Assembly (NCBI GenBank): GCA_963667255.1
Contig: OY762940.1
Span: 1,216,001-1,280,000, forward strand
Source: Candidatus Cloacimonadota bacterium
Lineage (GTDB): Bacteria; Cloacimonadota; Cloacimonadia; G963667145
Direction of reading: 5' to 3'
DNA: 64,000 nt
The position numbers and the translations under genes were made by a program. Positions 4,407-12,916 of this stretch are shown here, in pieces. Every line of letters starts with the position of its first letter. The stretch's first letter is position 1. The notes beneath the pieces are model-generated. The model made no database searches, was not told the DNA's origin, and worked only from the letters and a program-made list of their open reading frames with translations.

Positions 4407-5063
4407 ATGAAAAAAATTATTATTGTAGTTGGAGCTTATGGTAGCGGGAAAAGTGAATATTCTGCCAATTTAGCATATAGAGAAGGGAAATCGGTTATTG
4501 TTGATTTGGATATAATGAATCCTTACTTTAGAACTAGAGAATTAACGGAAAGATTTGCTGCCATTGGGATTGAAGTTGTTGCTCCCGAAGGTTCATTTCG
4601 CCATACTGAACTTCCCATGCTTTCACCGAGAATACAAGCAAAAATCGAAGAAAAAGATAAGATGATTATAATGGACATTGGTGGAGACCCTTTAGGGATG
4701 AAAGTGCTCGGACGCTACAAAAAAAATCTCACTAATAGAGGTTACGATCTCAGGATGGTTGTTAACACCAAGCGTCCTCAAACCTCTTCTGTAAAAGCAG
4801 TCTTAGAGATGTTTGATGAATTTGAATACTATTCTAAAATGAAAATAACAACTTTGGTTTCCAATACAAATTTGATGGAGTATACTAATTTGGAAGTTGT
4901 CACAGAAGGAGTAAGAATTGTTTCGGAAGTTGCCAAAATGAAAGGTGTAGATTTCTTTGAATACTGTGTCTTAAAAAAGAATTGCAGGGGCATTCCAGAT
5001 AAAATTGGTGAACAAAATATTTTTATAATGGATTATTTTTTGGGCAAGCCTTGGGAAAGATGA
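4407..5063 (+). CDS. P-loop ATP-binding protein (MinD/CobQ-like, conserved in anaerobes)
   Basis: Walker A GAYGSGKS; DLDIMNPYFRTRE; DIGGDP. Confidence 0.8.
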   Translation: MKKIIIVVGAYGSGKSEYSANLAYREGKSVIVDLDIMNPYFRTRELTERFAAIGIEVVAPEGSFRHTELPMLSPRIQAKIEEKDKMIIMDIGGDPLGMKVLGRYKKNLTNRGYDLRMVVNTKRPQTSSVKAVLEMFDEFEYYSKMKITTLVSNTNLMEYTNLEVVTEGVRIVSEVAKMKGVDFFEYCVLKKNCRGIPDKIGEQNIFIMDYFLGKPWER

Positions 5064-6253
5064 ACTTACCTTTTTTTTTCTCGTTAAGATACTTAAAAGG
5101 GAAAAGTAGATTTCCAATCAGTTTATGGTCGCTATTGAGTTGTGTGGGGATTTTCTTCGGAGTGTTTTCGATTTTGGTCTCTTCCGCCTTCATGGACGGA
5201 CTCAAGCAAGTAATGATGGATTCGTTGCTACAAAGCAGAGCACATATCACTATCAAAAGCAACGCAAATCAAGTTTTTGAGCAAAACTTTATAGAAGAAT
5301 TGCAAAACGATAACGACATCCAATTTTTTTCTTTTGTAATTCGCACCCAAGGCGTCATAAAGGTAGGAAATAAGTTTCAAGGAGTGCAAATTCAAGGAAT
5401 TGATTTTGCTAAACATAGAAAAATTTTGCCTTATCTAAATTCTCTATCAATAACCAAGTTGTCTGACAATCAAATTGTTCTCGGAAATACTCTTAAAACT
5501 CGTTTGAATATTTTTGACGGAACTCCGATTTACTTTTATTCGTTGCAACACACTCAAATTACAGCATTTGGAACATTGCCTGCGATTTATAAATTTAGCT
5601 TGTCAGATGAGTATTTCTGTGATGACAAAGTTTCGGAAGGCAATTTAGTGTTTGTTAACTTATCTACAGCTCAAAGGATTGCAGGCAAAAAGCGTGCAAA
5701 ATCTTTGGAAATTCATCTGAAGAGTCCGGATAACGCTGAAGTTGTGGCGGAGAGGTTGCAAGCGAAGTTAGGAGAAGGATTTACGGTGAGCGGTTGGTAT
5801 CAGGAAGATAAAACTATTTACAATTCATTGAAGATAGAAAGTATTGCTCTCAACTTGGTTCTTTTCTTGATAGTTATTTTGGCGATTTTTAATATGAGTG
5901 GTAATTTTTTGCGGTTGGTGAGCGAAAAGAGCGGAGAGATAGGCATTTTGAAATCGATGGGACTTCAGCAATCGCAAATAAAGAAGATTTTCATCTATTG
6001 CGGACTATTGATAGCCGGCATTGGAGTTGTGGTTGGTATTTTGGTTGCCTATGTTTTCTTGCATCTGCAATACAATTATCATCTAATAAAAATTCCTATT
6101 CAAGGATTGGGTTTTGACTATTTGCCTGTAGAGATTTCGTATGTTAACGGAGTTTTTATCTTTTGTGCGGTAATACTGTCCAGCCTGTTTTTTAGTTATT
6201 ATCCGTGCCAAAAATTGAAAAAGATTGAACCGATTAAAGTGATAAAAGGATGA
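5060..6253 (+). CDS. LolC/LolE-family (FtsX-like) ABC permease
   Basis: N-terminal TM, large periplasmic domain, EKSGEIGILKSMG motif and C-terminal TMs. ATG at 5060 overlaps the upstream stop. Confidence 0.85.
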   Translation: MNLPFFFSLRYLKGKSRFPISLWSLLSCVGIFFGVFSILVSSAFMDGLKQVMMDSLLQSRAHITIKSNANQVFEQNFIEELQNDNDIQFFSFVIRTQGVIKVGNKFQGVQIQGIDFAKHRKILPYLNSLSITKLSDNQIVLGNTLKTRLNIFDGTPIYFYSLQHTQITAFGTLPAIYKFSLSDEYFCDDKVSEGNLVFVNLSTAQRIAGKKRAKSLEIHLKSPDNAEVVAERLQAKLGEGFTVSGWYQEDKTIYNSLKIESIALNLVLFLIVILAIFNMSGNFLRLVSEKSGEIGILKSMGLQQSQIKKIFIYCGLLIAGIGVVVGILVAYVFLHLQYNYHLIKIPIQGLGFDYLPVEISYVNGVFIFCAVILSSLFFSYYPCQKLKKIEPIKVIKG

Positions 6254-7224
6254 AGAATTTGAGACACAAGAAAAGAAAATTACTGTTTTTATTCGCTCTG
6301 ATTGTTTTGCTAACGGCTTTTTGGATGCCCGATTCGTCTTCGCACAAGATTAAATACATAGAGCGAAGCTCCGACAAAGTAAAAGTAGAAGAGGTTGCCG
6401 GCGAAAAATGGCTGATTTGGCTATACAATAACCCAGTCGGGAGGCTATCTACAAAAGCTATCGTTAAACGAAAATTTGTTTCCGGCTGGTATGGCAAGAT
6501 GATGGACAGTCCGAAATCGCAAGAAAAAATTTCCTCTTTCATTTCCACTTATGACATCGACACCTCGATAGCAATAATGGAAGATTTTTCCAATTTCAAC
6601 GAGTTTTTTATCAGAAAATTGAAAAAATCCGCTCGCCCGATTGATGCGATGGAAAATTCCGTTGCTTCTCCGGCTGATGGCAAAGTGTTGGCTTGGGAAA
6701 ATCTGGACGAAAGCGATTTTATCGTCAAAGGTTACAAATTTAATCTCAGCGAATATTTGCAGGATGATGAACTTGCCAAAAAGTTTGCAGGTGGCTCAAT
6801 GATGCTTTTCCGCCTTTGCCCTACCGACTATCATCGCTTTCATTTTCCTGTGAGTGGAGTTGTCGAAGAGAACAAGAAAATTGACGGGGATTACTATTCT
6901 GTATCCCCTATTGCCATAAAAAAAATCGTCGAGCTTTTTTGTTTAAACAAAAGAGAGTTGACATTAATCGGGACAAAAGATTTTGGAGACATTATCATGA
7001 GTGAGATTGGTGCCACGATGGTTGGGAGCATCATCAACACTTATGTCGGCGACACTGTTGCCAAAGGTCAAGAAAAAGGCTACTTCAAATTTGGCGGTTC
7101 TTCAGTTTTGCTTATATTTGAAAAAGGCAAAGTTACTATTGACCGAGATATTTTGGAGAATACCAAAAAAGGCTTTGAGACGAAAATTTTTATGGGAGAA
7201 AGAGTAGCTATTGGCAAAGAATAG
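6250..7224 (+). CDS. psd: Phosphatidylserine decarboxylase proenzyme
   Basis: FNEFFIRKLK, SPADG, RLCPTDYHRFHFP, YSVSP, GATMVGSI, FKFGGSS self-cleavage motif. Confidence 0.93.
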   Translation: MKNLRHKKRKLLFLFALIVLLTAFWMPDSSSHKIKYIERSSDKVKVEEVAGEKWLIWLYNNPVGRLSTKAIVKRKFVSGWYGKMMDSPKSQEKISSFISTYDIDTSIAIMEDFSNFNEFFIRKLKKSARPIDAMENSVASPADGKVLAWENLDESDFIVKGYKFNLSEYLQDDELAKKFAGGSMMLFRLCPTDYHRFHFPVSGVVEENKKIDGDYYSVSPIAIKKIVELFCLNKRELTLIGTKDFGDIIMSEIGATMVGSIINTYVGDTVAKGQEKGYFKFGGSSVLLIFEKGKVTIDRDILENTKKGFETKIFMGERVAIGKE

Positions 7225-7230
7225 CAATTT

Positions 7231-8499
7231 ATGGAGAGAAAGATGAATTTTGATCAAATTAGCAGAGAGAGTGAGTTTTACGGCAACACTTCCGCCGTGG
7301 AATTGATAGAGAAGTATGGTTCGCCATTGTATGTATATAATGAGAATATTCTGAAAAAACGCTGTCGTGAGATGATGAATCTTGTCAGATATCCGAAGTT
7401 TAAGGTGCATTATTCGGTCAAAGCTAACTCCAACTTGGAGTTAATGAAGATAATCCGCAACGAAGGTCTGTATGTAGATGCGATGTCCCCTGGGGAGATG
7501 TATGCGGAGCTAAAAGTCGGATTTAAGCCTGAGCAGATTTTGTTTATTTGCAATAATGTGTCCGCTGAAGAGATGAGATTTGCCATAGACAGAGATATCA
7601 GAGTCAGCGTTGATTCCTTGTCTCAACTGGATTTGTATGGACAATTAAATCCCGGTGGAGATGTTTTTGTGAGGATTAATCCTGGAATTGGTGTTGGTCA
7701 CAGCGAAAATGTGATTACCGGTGGCAAGAAAACCAAATTTGGTATAGAGATGAAATCTATCCCCGAGCTCAAAAATATTTTGGCAAAGCATAAACTCAAT
7801 CTTATCGGCATCAATCAACACCTCGGTAGCCATTTTATGAGTTGGTTCGAGTATATCAACTCCGTGAATGTTGTTTTGAGGATTGCCCGAGAGTTTGAGG
7901 ATTTGCAGATTATAGATTTGGGTGGTGGCTTTGGTGTGCCCTATCACAAGCAAGACAACGAACAAAGGCTCAATCTTTCCGAACTTGGCAGTGAGCTTAA
8001 CGCTCGACTTTTGCAATGGGCTAACGAATATAATAGAGAAATCGAGTTTCGTGTAGAACCTGGTCGTTATATCGTGGCGGAATGCGGTATTCTGCTTGGC
8101 ACAGTGTTTACCAAAAAAGAGAACGATTATCGGAAATACATCGGGACAAATCTTGGCTTTAACCAATTCAAAAGGAAAGTGATGTATGATTCATATCACG
8201 ATATTGAAATTTATCGCAAAAGCGAAGACATCGACCTCAATGACAGAGAAAAAGTGATTATCGTCGGCGATATCTGTGAATCGGGAGATATCATAGCTTC
8301 CGACCGCTATTTGCCGAAAATCGAAGAAGGCGATATTCTTGGCGTGATGGATGCCGGAGCCTACGGCTTCAGTATGGCATGCAACTACAACAATAGATTG
8401 CGACCAGCTGAGGTTCTCATCGATTCCGAGGGTAATGACAGATTGATAAGAAGACGCGAAACATTTGAAGATTTGATGGCGTGCTTTGTGGAAGAGTAA
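7231..8499 (+). CDS. lysA: Diaminopimelate decarboxylase
   Basis: YSVKAN (PLP Lys), KFGI, HLGS, DLGGG, EPGRY, GDICESGD, GAYG..M..NYN. Confidence 0.95.
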   Translation: MERKMNFDQISRESEFYGNTSAVELIEKYGSPLYVYNENILKKRCREMMNLVRYPKFKVHYSVKANSNLELMKIIRNEGLYVDAMSPGEMYAELKVGFKPEQILFICNNVSAEEMRFAIDRDIRVSVDSLSQLDLYGQLNPGGDVFVRINPGIGVGHSENVITGGKKTKFGIEMKSIPELKNILAKHKLNLIGINQHLGSHFMSWFEYINSVNVVLRIAREFEDLQIIDLGGGFGVPYHKQDNEQRLNLSELGSELNARLLQWANEYNREIEFRVEPGRYIVAECGILLGTVFTKKENDYRKYIGTNLGFNQFKRKVMYDSYHDIEIYRKSEDIDLNDREKVIIVGDICESGDIIASDRYLPKIEEGDILGVMDAGAYGFSMACNYNNRLRPAEVLIDSEGNDRLIRRRETFEDLMACFVEE

Positions 8500-8517
8500 A
8501 ATAGCTGATTAATTTTT

Positions 8518-8552
8518 AAAAAACGGAATTGAAACTCAATTCCGTTTTTTTT
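8518..8552. terminator. Bidirectional Rho-independent terminator between lysA and the insert
   Basis: AAAAAA-CGGAATTGA-aac-TCAATTCCG-TTTTTTTT: perfect stem with A and T tracts on both sides. Confidence 0.9.
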
Positions 8553-8633
8553 GTTATACTTGATTTAGTTTAGATATTTGGGTGGAGGGCGTTATTGGCT
8601 GTTGTATGTAGTTTAGCTTATTATATATTTTAC

Positions 8634-9917
8634 TTACTCTCCCTCATTTAGGTTAGTCTCTCTCAATAAACCTATTTCGCTTGGAATATCAAAATCATCA
8701 ACGGTTTCATTGTCATATAAGAACACAATTTTTTTTCCGCATTTATAAGCATATCCGATTTCAAGAGAGGTTTTTGTTCCTACATATTTGTCAAAGTTGC
8801 AAACTATAATCATGTCACATGTTTCAATTGCTTTTAAGTGAAGTGCTTCAACAGACCAAGTGCAACGGTTAATAATTTTATCATTTTTAAAAAGAATAAA
8901 ACCTTTCTCAGACCCAACCACTTCAGTATTTAATGGACTATCTACAGTAATACCTTGAGTTTTGAGCACGCCAATTAGCTTTGTAATTTTATCAAGTTGT
9001 TTATTAAAACTTCCGCAAATTACAACATTTTTTACCTCTTGAACATTTATTCCATCAATTAAATTTGAGTCTGAGGGAATTATTTTGTTTATCCCATATT
9101 GCATACAAATAGCTTGAGCTATTGCGGAACAAGCTCTTGCTCCATTCATCCAAGCCGGATTATTAGGCATCATATTACGCAAATCAGCAATTGTTATTTC
9201 AGAAAATATACGTTTATTCTGAATACAATAATTATCAATTGTAATCATTGATGGATGATTTTCATCATCAAAAATATTGTTTTTCTCTAAATAATATCCT
9301 GCAACGTTCATATATGTTAATTCTCCACCTGTATATATTGCAGTATCATATCTTCTATCAACAAAAGGAAGCATATTTGAAATATACTCAACTACTTCGC
9401 TTAAAGGAGTTGGGCTGTACTCTTCATTTATCGCGTTATATTTTTTTAGTATTGTTCCAACACCCAAAGATAACATTTTTCGTTCCGTTACGAAACCGTT
9501 ATTGTAAAAAATCAATTCCGTTGTTTTTCCTCCTATATTTATAATCACTAACTTATTCTTATAATCACAATTTCCTATCCATGCTTTTTCCAAATAAAAT
9601 GCCTCTAATTCATGTGAAACAATATTAAAAAAAAGTCGAGTCATAGTATAAAATTCTTCAATAAAAGCTTGCTTATTAGTAAGCTCTCTAAAAATTCCTG
9701 TAGCAAACAACTTAGTATTACTACGTGTAAGTGATAATTCTTCTATCGTTTCATTAAAAAACGAGTACATGTTTTCTTTATTCAGACTTGATAAACCTAT
9801 CGCTGAGTCAAATTCATCCTTAAAATCAAATGTTTTCGCTTTAATAAGTTTTACTCTTACCCCATCATGTGTATATATTTTTACAGTTGAAGATCCTACA
9901 TCAATTAAATATTTCAT
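8634..9917 (-). CDS. Ppx/GppA-like ASKHA-fold phosphatase domain fused to a C-terminal nucleoside 2-deoxyribosyltransferase (NDT)-like domain
   Basis: IDVGSSTVK (phosphate-1), ATGIFRE, ELEA, NIGGKTTE (phosphate-2), SLGVG, TGGE, SDSNLIDG; C-terminus VVICGS...HLKAIETCD...YVGTKTSLEIGYAYKCGK. Start placed at ATG 9917, which has an AAGGA SD. Confidence 0.75.
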   Translation of the reverse strand: MKYLIDVGSSTVKIYTHDGVRVKLIKAKTFDFKDEFDSAIGLSSLNKENMYSFFNETIEELSLTRSNTKLFATGIFRELTNKQAFIEEFYTMTRLFFNIVSHELEAFYLEKAWIGNCDYKNKLVIINIGGKTTELIFYNNGFVTERKMLSLGVGTILKKYNAINEEYSPTPLSEVVEYISNMLPFVDRRYDTAIYTGGELTYMNVAGYYLEKNNIFDDENHPSMITIDNYCIQNKRIFSEITIADLRNMMPNNPAWMNGARACSAIAQAICMQYGINKIIPSDSNLIDGINVQEVKNVVICGSFNKQLDKITKLIGVLKTQGITVDSPLNTEVVGSEKGFILFKNDKIINRCTWSVEALHLKAIETCDMIIVCNFDKYVGTKTSLEIGYAYKCGKKIVFLYDNETVDDFDIPSEIGLLRETNLNEGE

Positions 9918-9954
9918 TTTTTCATCCTTAGTTATTGTTTTTTTCCGTAATAAG

Positions 9955-12072
9955 TTAATCAATATTTTCTATTGGCCAATATTCTTTTGGAATGAATGAT
10001 AATTGCACATCCTCAATTGGCTTTTGCCAAAATGCAATTGTTTTCCTTAAGGCATATGCATAATATATTTCGCATTTTGTCGATTCCCCTATATATCCAT
10101 TATTATATTTATTACATATAAAAAGGACATCACAATCATCTATTGCTGTTAAGTGTTCATACTCTGTGTCGGGAGAAATATCTTTTTTTAACTTTCCCTT
10201 TCGATCAAATTTTGGGCTTAATACCTTAACATCTTTCATTTCTTCCATTTTTTTACTGGCTTTATACAAGTATTTAGTTCCTTTATCATGAGTAGTCCCA
10301 CTAATTACAATATTAAAAACATACGCATTTATATTTGCACTAATAGTTAAATCGTCTTTCGGAATTACTATCTTATTATTTAGCTTATCAAGAATAGTTT
10401 CAATAATTATATGTCCAAATTTGAAGCCATGTAGTCTTTTCACCATTGTTTCATCGTCATACTCTTTTTTTAAGGACTCTAAATAATTTGCAGAAAATAA
10501 CGCTTCTCTATTATGAATTTTATATTCATCTTGAGAAAGACATTGCTCATTTGCATTTTGCTTTAGTCGATATCCCATTTCATTCATAAATTTCAATTCA
10601 CCCTTTAGTATAATCGCTTGATTAATCTTTACTCCATCTAGCGATGATTCTATTTTATTTTCTATAAATTTCTTTATTTTATTAATTGAGTTATCATCCC
10701 ATACTTCCGATGCAATATTAGTGGATACATAAGTTTGAACATCTTTTATCGTTACTAATAAATTGTACTCATGATATTCTTTTCCAGAATAATATAAAAT
10801 ATCTGTGCAATGAGAACCTATATTAATTATTGCCGTCCCATCACTTAAATTTCCAAACAAACGATCAATGTTTTCAGTTGTTTTCTCTTTAGAGATAATA
10901 TTAAAATACAGATTTGTTTCTTTATAGAATTTCCGGATAACATCTTTTAACTTTTTAGGCTCATTTTCGTTAAATATTTCCCCAAATCTATAATCTACGA
11001 AAACTTTTCTCAGCATTTGAGAATCATTTTTATGTACTTTCTCTGATTGTAATAAGGATTTTACGCAAGCTATAATTTCATCGAGATGAAAATTGTCTTT
11101 AAAAACATCACAGTTATAGCTTATCATCTCAAGTTCCTTAGAATTATCTTTGTCTATAATTTCAAAAAGACGACATGATGTTGTTCCAATGTTTATAAAG
11201 TAACCTAATGGTCCAGCTACTTTTTTAGGTTTTTTATTCATATTATTTTGTTGTTTTTTTTTTTGCGTAATGCTTCCTGTTGATATGTTTCTTTTTTTGG
11301 GCAATTTATCAAATGCATTTTTTTTTAAAAACACGTGTTCTAATAATGATACAGCTGCCTTTGAAGCCATAATTTGATTTTTTTCTTTGTTCGGATTTTC
11401 TTTATTTACTCCCCAATCACAAATCGCTTTTACAATTATCCATTCGTCCATTCTTGCTTTTTTGCATGCAGCATAAGCCCCACGTCCTTCCATTTCTCCA
11501 CCAATTGCACGTGGTGCATCCTTAAAAAGTTTTTTCTTGTAGACAAGATCATCTACAACTTTATTTCCTGATAGAATCATTCCAAATTCACATTTTAATT
11601 TTCTTGAGCCACTATAGTTCTCCCATGTTTTTGAGTAATTCTTAAAAACTGATAATAATGTTTCTCCTGCCTCTGCTCTTACTCCATCAGATAGGAATTT
11701 TCCATTTGTTATTTTACCACTTTCACAATCTACCATAATTTCTGATATTAAAACATCTCCAATATGTTGCTTAGGGTTTTTTTCATTTCCGTTCTCTTTA
11801 CCAAATGCAATTCCAAGCAAAATTACAGCATCTGGTTCCCACCCTTTAATAGCCGCATTAATTGAAAATAATGCAGCTCCTGTTTTTGCTGTTCCTTTAT
11901 TTTGCAATTCAAAATGAATTATATCATAATTCCCTATTTCCCCAACATTATAAAAATTGTTATCATCGGTGGCTTTAGCCCGCTGATTCTTTTCGTAATT
12001 AAAATTTTTACAATTTAGTAATGCATTTGTTTCATGATTGTTCGCCGTTACAAGTAGAAATCGTTTCTTCAT
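9955..12072 (-). CDS. Tri-domain protein: PNP/MTA-SAH nucleosidase + degenerate Ppx/GppA-like ASKHA domain + NDT-like domain
   Basis: PNP_UDP_1 motifs LVTANNHE, GIAFG, IGDVLIS, ILSGNKVVD, GGEMEG, IVKAICDWG. Middle and C-terminal parts align by eye with the 8634-9917 protein. Start placed at ATG 12072, which has a GAGGAG SD. Confidence 0.78.
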   Translation of the reverse strand: MKKRFLLVTANNHETNALLNCKNFNYEKNQRAKATDDNNFYNVGEIGNYDIIHFELQNKGTAKTGAALFSINAAIKGWEPDAVILLGIAFGKENGNEKNPKQHIGDVLISEIMVDCESGKITNGKFLSDGVRAEAGETLLSVFKNYSKTWENYSGSRKLKCEFGMILSGNKVVDDLVYKKKLFKDAPRAIGGEMEGRGAYAACKKARMDEWIIVKAICDWGVNKENPNKEKNQIMASKAAVSLLEHVFLKKNAFDKLPKKRNISTGSITQKKKQQNNMNKKPKKVAGPLGYFINIGTTSCRLFEIIDKDNSKELEMISYNCDVFKDNFHLDEIIACVKSLLQSEKVHKNDSQMLRKVFVDYRFGEIFNENEPKKLKDVIRKFYKETNLYFNIISKEKTTENIDRLFGNLSDGTAIINIGSHCTDILYYSGKEYHEYNLLVTIKDVQTYVSTNIASEVWDDNSINKIKKFIENKIESSLDGVKINQAIILKGELKFMNEMGYRLKQNANEQCLSQDEYKIHNREALFSANYLESLKKEYDDETMVKRLHGFKFGHIIIETILDKLNNKIVIPKDDLTISANINAYVFNIVISGTTHDKGTKYLYKASKKMEEMKDVKVLSPKFDRKGKLKKDISPDTEYEHLTAIDDCDVLFICNKYNNGYIGESTKCEIYYAYALRKTIAFWQKPIEDVQLSFIPKEYWPIENID

Positions 12073-12276
12073 AAGCCATTCTCCTCTCAAAATATAGTAC
12101 CTGTCTATTTAATTTCAAATTAAAATATTTTGCATTTATGTTGTTTTGTTTTTTAATATTTATCTTAATTTCCCTTCCAAATTGTACACAACATTTAAAT
12201 AACCTCAACTGTGTTTATTTATCCAAATTGGGAGGGATAAACACAATTGCCTTTATTTTCCTTTATATTTTTATTC

Positions 12277-12306
12277 ACAATAAAAAAGTTAAGTTTTCTT
12301 TGTCAA
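12277..12306 (-). promoter_or_regulatory. Putative sigma70 promoter reading into the islet
   Basis: TTGACA (12301-12306, minus strand) followed after 18 nt by TATTGT. Confidence 0.45.
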
Positions 12307-12376
12307 CTCATATTTCCTTGACTGATTTTTCCTTTTAATCTTCTTAAAATCACTATCTAAATCAAGGAAAATTTAA

Positions 12377-12916
12377 ATGAATTGTATAGAAATTGCCCTT
12401 AAACACATTCGCCAAGATTTGTGGGATTCGTATTTTGTTCATTCTGTTTTGGTTACGCAGATGTCTTTGGAGATTGCGGAGAATTTGAATTTGGACGAAG
12501 CAATCAAACAGTTTATCCGAGAAGCTGCTATGCTCCACGATATAGGTATCGGAGAAGTGAGTATGGACAAGAAAAATCCGCAAAACAAGCCACCATACAT
12601 CACTCACGGACTCGTTGGTTTTCGGATTTTGAGCGAATTGGGCTACCCCAAGCACGCACTCGTCTGTCGCAATCACATCGGTGTAGGGCTTACCAAGGAG
12701 ATTATCTTGCGGAACGGATTTCCTTTGCCTGCTGAGGATATGACACCATCTACCTTACCTGAAGAGATAATCACTTATGCGGACTTGTTTTTTAGCAAAA
12801 GCAATCCTTTCAAAAAGAGGAGTTTTGCCGAGGTTGTGAAGAAAATAGAAACCTACGGGCAAGAGCAATTAGACAAATTTCATCAACTGCATAAAAAATT
12901 TTCTTCGCTCAAATAA
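12377..12916 (+). CDS. HD-domain (HDIG) metal-dependent phosphohydrolase
   Basis: HS..V, AMLHDIG, HGLVG, CRNHIGVG, EEIITYADLFFSK. Confidence 0.9.
   Translation: MNCIEIALKHIRQDLWDSYFVHSVLVTQMSLEIAENLNLDEAIKQFIREAAMLHDIGIGEVSMDKKNPQNKPPYITHGLVGFRILSELGYPKHALVCRNHIGVGLTKEIILRNGFPLPAEDMTPSTLPEEIITYADLFFSKSNPFKKRSFAEVVKKIETYGQEQLDKFHQLHKKFSSLK

Follow-up and report, generated by a model that had tools for sequence, protein, structure and literature searches.

Why should an apparently intact enzyme be encoded directly behind a relative of itself in which the corresponding active site is eroded and to which a nucleosidase domain is joined? This question is raised by two neighbouring genes, here called A and B, on the minus strand of a 64,000-nucleotide stretch of contig OY762940.1 from a Candidatus Cloacimonadota bacterium (the window, in whose positions all coordinates are given). 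Gene A (9955..12072) encodes 705 residues comprising a PNP/MTAN-like effector, a linker, a pseudo-ASKHA domain and an NDT-like domain, and gene B (8634..9917) encodes a 427-residue fusion of an intact ASKHA domain and an NDT domain; residues are numbered from M1 at 12072 for A and at 9917 for B. The first-pass annotation of the window had read the two products as ancient paralogues, one an active enzyme and the other a pseudo-enzyme. The analysis described here shows that the pairing of enzyme and pseudo-enzyme is real, and that the two genes probably represent a new defence family whose logic is of a known kind. A defence role, as an uncharacterised abortive-infection system that is likely directed against phage, is very likely, and a wiring for the pair is proposed more tentatively.

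Paralogy and active sites of A and B

A and B are paralogous and share a common Ppx-like ASKHA + NDT module, a conclusion upheld by BLASTP, by comparison of family profiles, by shuffling and by the folds of the domains. All 16 motif blocks from which the relationship was first read were located in collinear order on the minus strand, at 11196-10054 in A and 9905-8745 in B. Alignment of A residues 288-680 with B gives 101 identities over 420 positions (24%, E 2e-17), and the profiles of the A family (51 sequences) and the B family (107 sequences) align in HHalign with a probability of 100 over 386 columns (E 2.8e-41). The local-alignment score of the two proteins, 207, lies above all 200 shuffles (41.4+/-6.4, maximum 63), as do the scores of the separate domains: 132 for ASKHA against a shuffle maximum of 58, and 92 for NDT against a shuffle maximum of 48. 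The shuffles and the profile comparison together exclude a compositional artefact as the cause of the likeness.

The 107 homologues in the B alignment were taken from the best 120 of 747 database matches. Superposition on Ppx/GppA and NTPDases, which had been suggested as a check, places the model of B (predicted local distance difference test, pLDDT, 93.7) with both: Ppx/GppA ranks top (Aquifex 1t6d, Z 18.4, root-mean-square deviation 4.2, 287 residues aligned), followed by the NTPDases (Z 13.1), and residues from about 296 to 423 match NDT, MilB, ThsB and RCL structures (Z 11.7-9.6). The N-terminal domain (residues 1-293, 9039..9917) scores 35.9 bits against Pfam PF02541, for which the cut-off is 27, and has in common with the Ppx/GppA proteins of Aquifex and E. 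coli and with NTPDases the ASKHA fold, DxGS, AT..R, the catalytic Glu (E105) and GGxTE; the four motifs had been claimed for B and are present in the window's own protein. Across the family D6 is conserved in 105/107, K13, T73, R77 and E105 in 107/107 and E134 in 104/107. What does not survive is a reading of B as a canonical Ppx. The phosphate-2 Asp of Aquifex Ppx (DQGGGSTE) is N127 in B, Asn in 106 of the 107 homologues and Asn again in 85/88 of a second set of B sequences, in which Asp never occurs. The catalytic acids of E. coli Ppx are described as E121, D143 and E150, with mutants that keep residual activity (PMC5417653); of these, B has the E121- and E150-type residues (E105, 107/107; E134, 104/107), and the D143 equivalent is Asn. 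Together with an NCBIfam Ppx/GppA score of 42 bits against a 307-bit cut-off, N127 rules out a canonical Ppx identity and argues that B is, as judged from its residues, a Ppx-like enzyme of altered chemistry, which differs from Ppx/GppA also in carrying a C-terminal NDT domain instead of HD-like domains.

This second domain of B (residues 294-427, 8637..9038) scores 21.9 bits against the NDT Pfam model, below the cut-off of 28.8, and forms a distinct subfamily that, unlike DNPH1, MilB and the NDTs, is fused to ASKHA. Its profile finds as best PDB sequence match the CMP N-glycosidase 4jen (E 7e-4), and its structural scores are 11.7 for NDT, 10.2 for MilB and 9.9 for ThsB; TIR domains also align, and the PADLOC ThsB model matches B at E 0.03. 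The fold and the arrangement of a CGS motif (CGS303), ExxH, an Asp and a nucleophile Glu resemble those of DNPH1/Rcl, MilB and nucleoside 2-deoxyribosyltransferases, as far as these are set out in PMC10603095, according to which Asp and the nucleophile Glu of DNPH1 drive cleavage, His contacts the base and an adjacent Glu activates water. The equivalent residues of B, set by alignment, are E357, H360, D368 and E386, each 107/107. A short form of B, of about 260 residues, occurs at 4 of the 14 metagenome A loci; twelve proteins of this form lack about 160 residues of ASKHA lobe II, have lost K13, T73 and R77 or do not conserve them, and retain E105 in only 6 cases, yet all of the NDT residues are kept in all 12. 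Since short B sheds half of its ASKHA domain and keeps the NDT site, the indispensable chemistry of B is likely to be that of a putative DNPH1/MilB-like N-glycosidase. The description of B as the active partner is thus sound with regard to its catalytic residues but too broad with regard to ASKHA activity, which is dispensable in the lobe-II-deleted sub-lineage, and for this reason the contrast between an active and a dead ASKHA domain is not the whole switch. A further group of B homologues (P0004-P0007, P0013, P0015 and P0020), of 500-600 residues, has the NDT region duplicated and nested.

The model of A (pLDDT 84.2) folds as an MTAN-like PNP, a disordered linker, ASKHA and NDT, and a Foldseek search with it retrieves MTAN at the N-terminus and 1t6d at rank 29 (E 9e-14). 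In its ASKHA domain (residues 288-583, 10324..11211) the equivalents of D6, T73, R77 and E105 are missing: N294 stands for D6, there is no AT..R and T398 stands for E105, which confirms in the window's own protein the reported loss of the phosphate-1 Asp (to Asn), of AT..R and of the EA Glu. Among the 51 sequences of the A family, position 294 is never Asp (N/S/Y/H), the position of B T73 is Asp in 51/51, that of R77 is unconserved and that of E105 is Thr in 48/51. The A family has invariant polar residues of its own, R301, D360, K490, E492, H554 and E558 (each 51/51), of which K490, E492 and H554 are found also in 18/18 distant A-type proteins, a set that overlaps the collected loci in part. 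ASKHA columns conserved at 95% or more number 33 in A and 55 in B, of 293. With a mean of 1.60 against 1.44 for B, A changes at a similarly slow pace and is therefore under selection. The pseudo-enzyme state of A is consequently borne out by the loss of Ppx residues across the 51 sequences, with the reservation that 2 of the 18 distant homologues have Glu at the E105 position. That its ASKHA domain is a non-catalytic sensor or scaffold gating the PNP, as had been proposed, is in keeping with these losses and with the swappable effectors described below. The A core has no match among PADLOC or NCBIfam models, and its profile has no PDB sequence match.

The NDT-like domain of A (residues 584-705, 9958..10323) retains conserved G592, H640 and D648. 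The claim that both proteins keep the catalytic-type NDT Glu is correct for the window's pair (E668 in A, E386 in B) but not for the family, in which the nucleophile Glu of A is present in 45/51 (Gln in 4, His in 2) and in 12/18 of the distant homologues. H640 (49/51 and 18/18) and D648 (51/51 and 18/18) are kept, and E637 is present in 29/51 and 1/18. The domain looks like a second decaying site and is the better candidate for the ligand pocket, and from the alignment we infer that binding has been kept there and catalysis relaxed.

An unrooted tree, calculated in quick mode from 43 hand-picked rows that exclude the short-B proteins, places A in one clade on a long stem and ten paired B proteins in another, with the B of locus L033 apart. 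A topology that groups A with the paired B proteins is not rejected (p-AU 0.85, log-likelihood 16.5 higher), and A may be descended from the paired-B lineage. The duplication had been called ancient, which these data bear out at most in part: the stem of A is long, and a duplication within the paired-B lineage is compatible with the tree test. The distances among A proteins and among B proteins co-vary (Mantel r 0.91 for 11 pairs; 0.70 without L033, p 2e-4).

Effectors, distribution and genomic setting

The N-terminal domain of A (residues 1-255, 11308..12072) is a PNP_UDP_1/MTAN-fold nucleosidase effector, for which MTAN structures rank top in a fold search and which the PADLOC PN-superfamily effector model matches weakly (E 2e-7; to 2e-16 in homologues). 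Its E14, GEME192-195 and D219 (ICD219W) are each conserved in 30/30, and immune PNPs are reported to cleave ATP and dATP and to require an Asp of the D219 type (10.1101/2023.01.24.525353). The domain ends at a low-confidence linker (residues 256-287, 11212..11307; pLDDT <50 at 264-284) that marks the junction at which effectors are swapped. Of 50 A homologues, 31 begin with a PNP (2 of them N-terminally truncated), one each with a PRTase-CE, a deaminase, a TIR and an unknown helical domain, and 15 have no effector, defined as fewer than 60 residues before the core, some of which may be mis-called starts. A search of 1.8 billion representatives with the A profile added 10 long A proteins: three with PNP, one with a degenerate PNP-like domain, one with calcineurin-like and PNP domains (P0197), one with a caspase, two with SMEK, one with SIR2 and one with a helical domain. 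The variety of N-termini points to A being a regulatory core with interchangeable effectors, of which eight types are predicted. At two effector-less loci, L033 (7950-8705) and L090 (470-1333), the gene directly upstream of A encodes a TIR/NDT-like and coiled-coil protein, homologous between the two (36% identity, E 5e-34), which is a candidate effector in trans. The two SMEK-core proteins P0203 and P0205 carry a second, B-like NDT domain at the C-terminus and are possibly one-gene versions of the system.

The order of the pair, A and then directly B, is the same at 8/8 genome loci, at all 14 metagenome loci listed (of at least 14, with L081-084 and L086-087 near-duplicates) and at the present locus. 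In the genome scan, among the best 80 of 242 B-type loci, A is directly upstream in 8 (Clostridia, a Thiotrichaceae metagenome-assembled genome and Enterococcus), 1 is cut by a contig end and the others are solo B, mostly in the candidate phyla radiation (CPR) and DPANN; at some of the solo loci only the ASKHA domain is present, or the NDT domain is detached. The islet is found in 0/40 relatives, including 5 congeners, in which the same site is empty (3), is occupied by a transposase gene together with a RelA/SpoT-like gene (1), or carries a chitinase-like cluster (1). Among 401 genomes sampled from the order to which one A-bearing genome belongs, full A occurs in that genome only, and 31 others give weak partial matches, nearly all NDT-only. 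The islet has a GC content of 0.297 vs 0.384, and in 11 of 12 other loci the pair lies below its flanks. The A/B module is horizontally acquired and forms a small islet of foreign DNA, around which no convincing terminal repeats were found. Carriage of the pair by phages or plasmids was considered and rejected: IMG/VR contains no A or B relative, INPHARED phage genomes, queried with B only, contain none, and PLSDB plasmids have no A and matched B just in 6 Streptomyces short-B genes. The intergenic site between lysA and the HD gene (8500-12376 in the window; G001-G005, L109-L113) is a variable insertion spot, with the transposase and RelA/SpoT-domain gene in G001 and, in G002, a three-gene cluster labelled chitinase-like from a reading of its sequence.

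When 54 selected proteins, of which 49 are neighbours and 5 are A homologues, were scanned with PADLOC (with no background control), genes near A matched Gabija (L088), a type II restriction-modification methylase, AbiD and PDC-M03 (L087), ZacBC (L093), PDC-S15 (L090), PDC-S01 (L085) and AbiL (L022). Pfam identifies integrase, type IV secretion or relaxase genes at L002, L004, L022 and L033. Two of the A/B loci (L004:740-5192, L088:2490-5907) have in their neighbourhood both an AAA/NTPase-TPR gene and an ATP-grasp gene.

The wider family of B has neighbours of another kind. Of 71 solo-B loci, 21 have, no more than two genes away, a gene for methylpurine glycosylase (MPG), Ham1, guanylate kinase, YfbR-like nucleotidase, NUDIX, ASCH or a separate NDT, and such house-cleaning genes make up 27/233 near neighbours vs 9/636 far ones, for seed families picked from the near genes and genomes that are related. 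Solo B is fused once to an adenylate-kinase-like domain (L030:9104-11239) and once to NUDIX, beside purA (L078:5130-6506). Six Streptomyces plasmids carry a short-B homologue that has the deletion of lobe II also seen in the short B paired with A and that in 4/4 regions viewed follows a SAM methyltransferase and a UDG-family glycosylase; in these regions (L114-L117, about 4500-12500) the short ASKHA-remnant-NDT gene is followed by an AMP-binding protein, ketosynthase(s) and a thioesterase, and the operon could be a DNA- or base-modification or genotoxin cluster with self-protection. At six solo loci (L026, L028, L046, L047, L053, L055) the product of a divergently transcribed NDT-like gene, of about 200 residues, has its nucleophile position occupied by Gln in five cases and by Asp in one and bears, by sequence reading, a ribbon-helix-helix-like tail, which makes it a candidate nucleotide-sensing repressor. 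The house-cleaning, glycosylase and methyltransferase neighbours of its kin thus suggest that the B family is associated with damaged or modified bases, and apparently dead NDTs recur beside B.

At the locus itself, A and B are flanked by convergent lysA (7231-8499) and by an HD-protein gene (12377-12916). A starts at an ATG at 12072 with an RBS-like GAGGAG immediately upstream. B most likely starts at the ATG at 9917 and not at the in-frame TTG at 9962, which overlaps the stop of A; the 427 residues read from 9917 are identical to the database protein P0003. A perfect 15-bp hairpin with A/T tails (8518..8550) lies between convergent lysA and B and is terminator-like. Two sigma70-like consensus matches (10/12) occur on the minus strand upstream of A (12091..12306), which is weak evidence for a promoter because 35 such sites are observed there against 23.5 expected by chance; an imperfect inverted repeat of 31 bp (74%, 12197-12258) is situated between the two.

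How the pair may work

The preferred model, held with somewhat less than even confidence, takes its wiring from Metis, in which m6dAMP from phage-degraded DNA is reported to activate MisA and MisB to clear basal m6dAMP (10.1101/2025.11.05.686725); Vesta is described as following a similar logic (10.64898/2026.09.04.749371). By analogy, A would bind an aberrant nucleotide and fire its effector, and B would remove the basal level of that nucleotide. The NDT domain of B would be an active nucleoside-monophosphate N-glycosidase, perhaps fed by phosphate stripping in the ASKHA domain, and its substrate a modified or damaged nucleotide. A would sense the same molecule in its retained binding pocket (H640, D648, GS), perhaps with the rewired ASKHA cleft. 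Phage-driven DNA breakdown or distortion of the nucleotide pool would overwhelm B, the PNP of A would then destroy ATP and dATP, and the infected cell would die. A single scheme of this kind explains why the two genes are paralogous and tightly linked, why their ancestry lies in house-cleaning, why the pocket has been kept and why the effectors are swapped.

Several observations weigh against it. The house-cleaning enrichment is circular, the kin are not independent, and 50 of the 71 solo loci have no such neighbour. The distant A homologues have Glu at 398 in 2/18, Asp at 294 in 1/18 and Asp at 417 in 6/18, and the A of the window retains both NDT glutamates, so that it is possibly still catalytic there. 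With regard to defence, the tally of neighbours comes from 54 selected proteins without a background control, L001, L003, L014 and L091 have no known defence gene in the PADLOC scan, and at the effector-less loci L004, L092 and L093, where upstream context is available, there is no obvious partner effector gene. Finally, a physical complex would explain the strict co-divergence of A and B no less well than a common ligand.

It is possible, given the structural alignment of B's NDT domain with ThsB (Z 9.9) and TIR domains besides NDTs, that B makes a signal: its NDT product would bind A and either switch the effector on, as in Thoeris, or hold it off until phage removes it, as in Panoptes. The NDT residues are invariant even in short B, and an enzyme next to a receptor-effector with swappable effectors is the layout of Thoeris and CBASS. 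However, this is unlikely for three reasons: first, the closest relatives of B stand alone in house-cleaning neighbourhoods without A and have the same NDT residues. Second, the structural scores of NDT and MilB equal or exceed that of ThsB. Third, B has no added phage-sensing domain.

The co-divergence of A and B, which are never separated, raises instead the possibility of a guard or antitoxin, a variant of which had been put forward in the first-pass annotation and in which a heterocomplex formed through the NDT dimer surfaces would allow B to restrain the effector until a phage protein binds, inhibits or degrades B. DNPH1 and MilB are described as dimers whose active sites borrow from the other chain (PMC10603095), the eroded ASKHA lobe I kept by short B could serve as a scaffold, and a C-terminal PxE motif is invariant in A and B. 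This arrangement too would be rather improbable, given that the full catalytic constellation of B (107/107, and 12/12 in short B) is needless for a pure antitoxin and that short B with its eroded lobe occurs in Streptomyces without A.

Far less probable is that A is rewired rather than dead, its ASKHA cleft or NDT domain catalysing another reaction, with the core or the NDT of B as a nucleotide-draining effector and the fused domains as add-ons. The polar invariants of A match a catalytic site in strictness (51/51; K490, E492 and H554 18/18), 15/50 homologues lack an N-terminal domain, and in type VIII Thoeris, as outlined in 10.64898/2025.12.03.692087, the proposed effector, ThsI, is a CMP-hydrolase domain; against this, eight effector types on one core point to regulation, a separate TIR/NDT-like gene is present at two effector-less loci, and the ASKHA domain of A has fewer columns conserved at 95% or more than that of B (33 vs 55 of 293). 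It is just as hard to credit that the pair is a mobile cassette for nucleotide salvage or detoxification, with PNP, ASKHA and NDT in one pathway. In its favour are the metabolic look of the solo B relatives, the action of PNP, NDT and deaminase alike on nucleosides, and the housekeeping genes (lysA, fusA) that flank the pair in the window, where there is no defence island. Against it, the PNP is replaced on the same core by SIR2, TIR, caspase, SMEK and PRTase-CE, and the distribution is sporadic with several loci among defence genes.

Relation to known systems and significance

The two-gene logic proposed for Metis and Vesta in the parts of those reports that describe it, a sensor-effector for an aberrant nucleotide and an enzyme that removes the basal level, is the same as that favoured here for A and B. 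The components differ: Metis as described has a PUA m6dAMP sensor, a calcineurin or transmembrane effector and an HAD phosphatase, whereas the present pair has pseudo-ASKHA/NDT and ASKHA-NDT, and from what is described of the two systems no sensor or clearing domain is in common and only here are sensor and clearer paralogous. There is a partial overlap with Metis in the one A homologue with a calcineurin-like domain (P0197). Detocs and the Cap17-clade ATP nucleosidases resemble A in a PNP effector with an intact catalytic Asp (A D219, 30/30) and in swappable effectors, and Detocs is described as having an effector-less paralogous module, DtcB, proposed to buffer against autoimmunity (10.1101/2023.01.24.525353); unlike in Detocs, no histidine kinase or receiver domain was found in A or B in domain-library searches. 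Thoeris, including type VIII (ThsI), pairs a flavodoxin-like glycosidase gene with a receptor-effector gene of variable effectors, according to the portion of 10.64898/2025.12.03.692087 that treats it, whereas B is more probably an NDT-subfamily fusion than a TIR, and the receptor A is a paralogue of the enzyme B. No defence pair of the Ppx-NDT kind turned up in a search of the literature and of four defence preprints; supplements and subscription papers, which could list the operon, lay outside that search.

A fuller history can be offered only as possible and on balance doubtful, namely that a sanitising enzyme widespread in CPR and DPANN, an ASKHA phosphatase joined to an N-glycosidase, was duplicated and one copy became the receptor for the molecule that the other destroys, giving a new defence family of the signalling type, with eight or more interchangeable effectors and with a modified or damaged deoxynucleoside or nucleoside monophosphate other than m6dAMP as the danger nucleotide. 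The main signalling defences of bacteria are marked by an exchange of effectors such as is seen here among SIR2, TIR, PNP, caspase, calcineurin, SMEK and PRTase-CE, and a new sensor core of pseudo-ASKHA and NDT implies a new danger signal. The paralogy, moreover, makes a prediction, that the substrate of B is the ligand of A. If this is true, to identify the ligand would be to learn what the CPR enzyme acts on and would give a handle on an uncharacterised nucleotide enzyme of CPR and DPANN, and the pair would show clearly how an enzyme of house-cleaning can become its own alarm.

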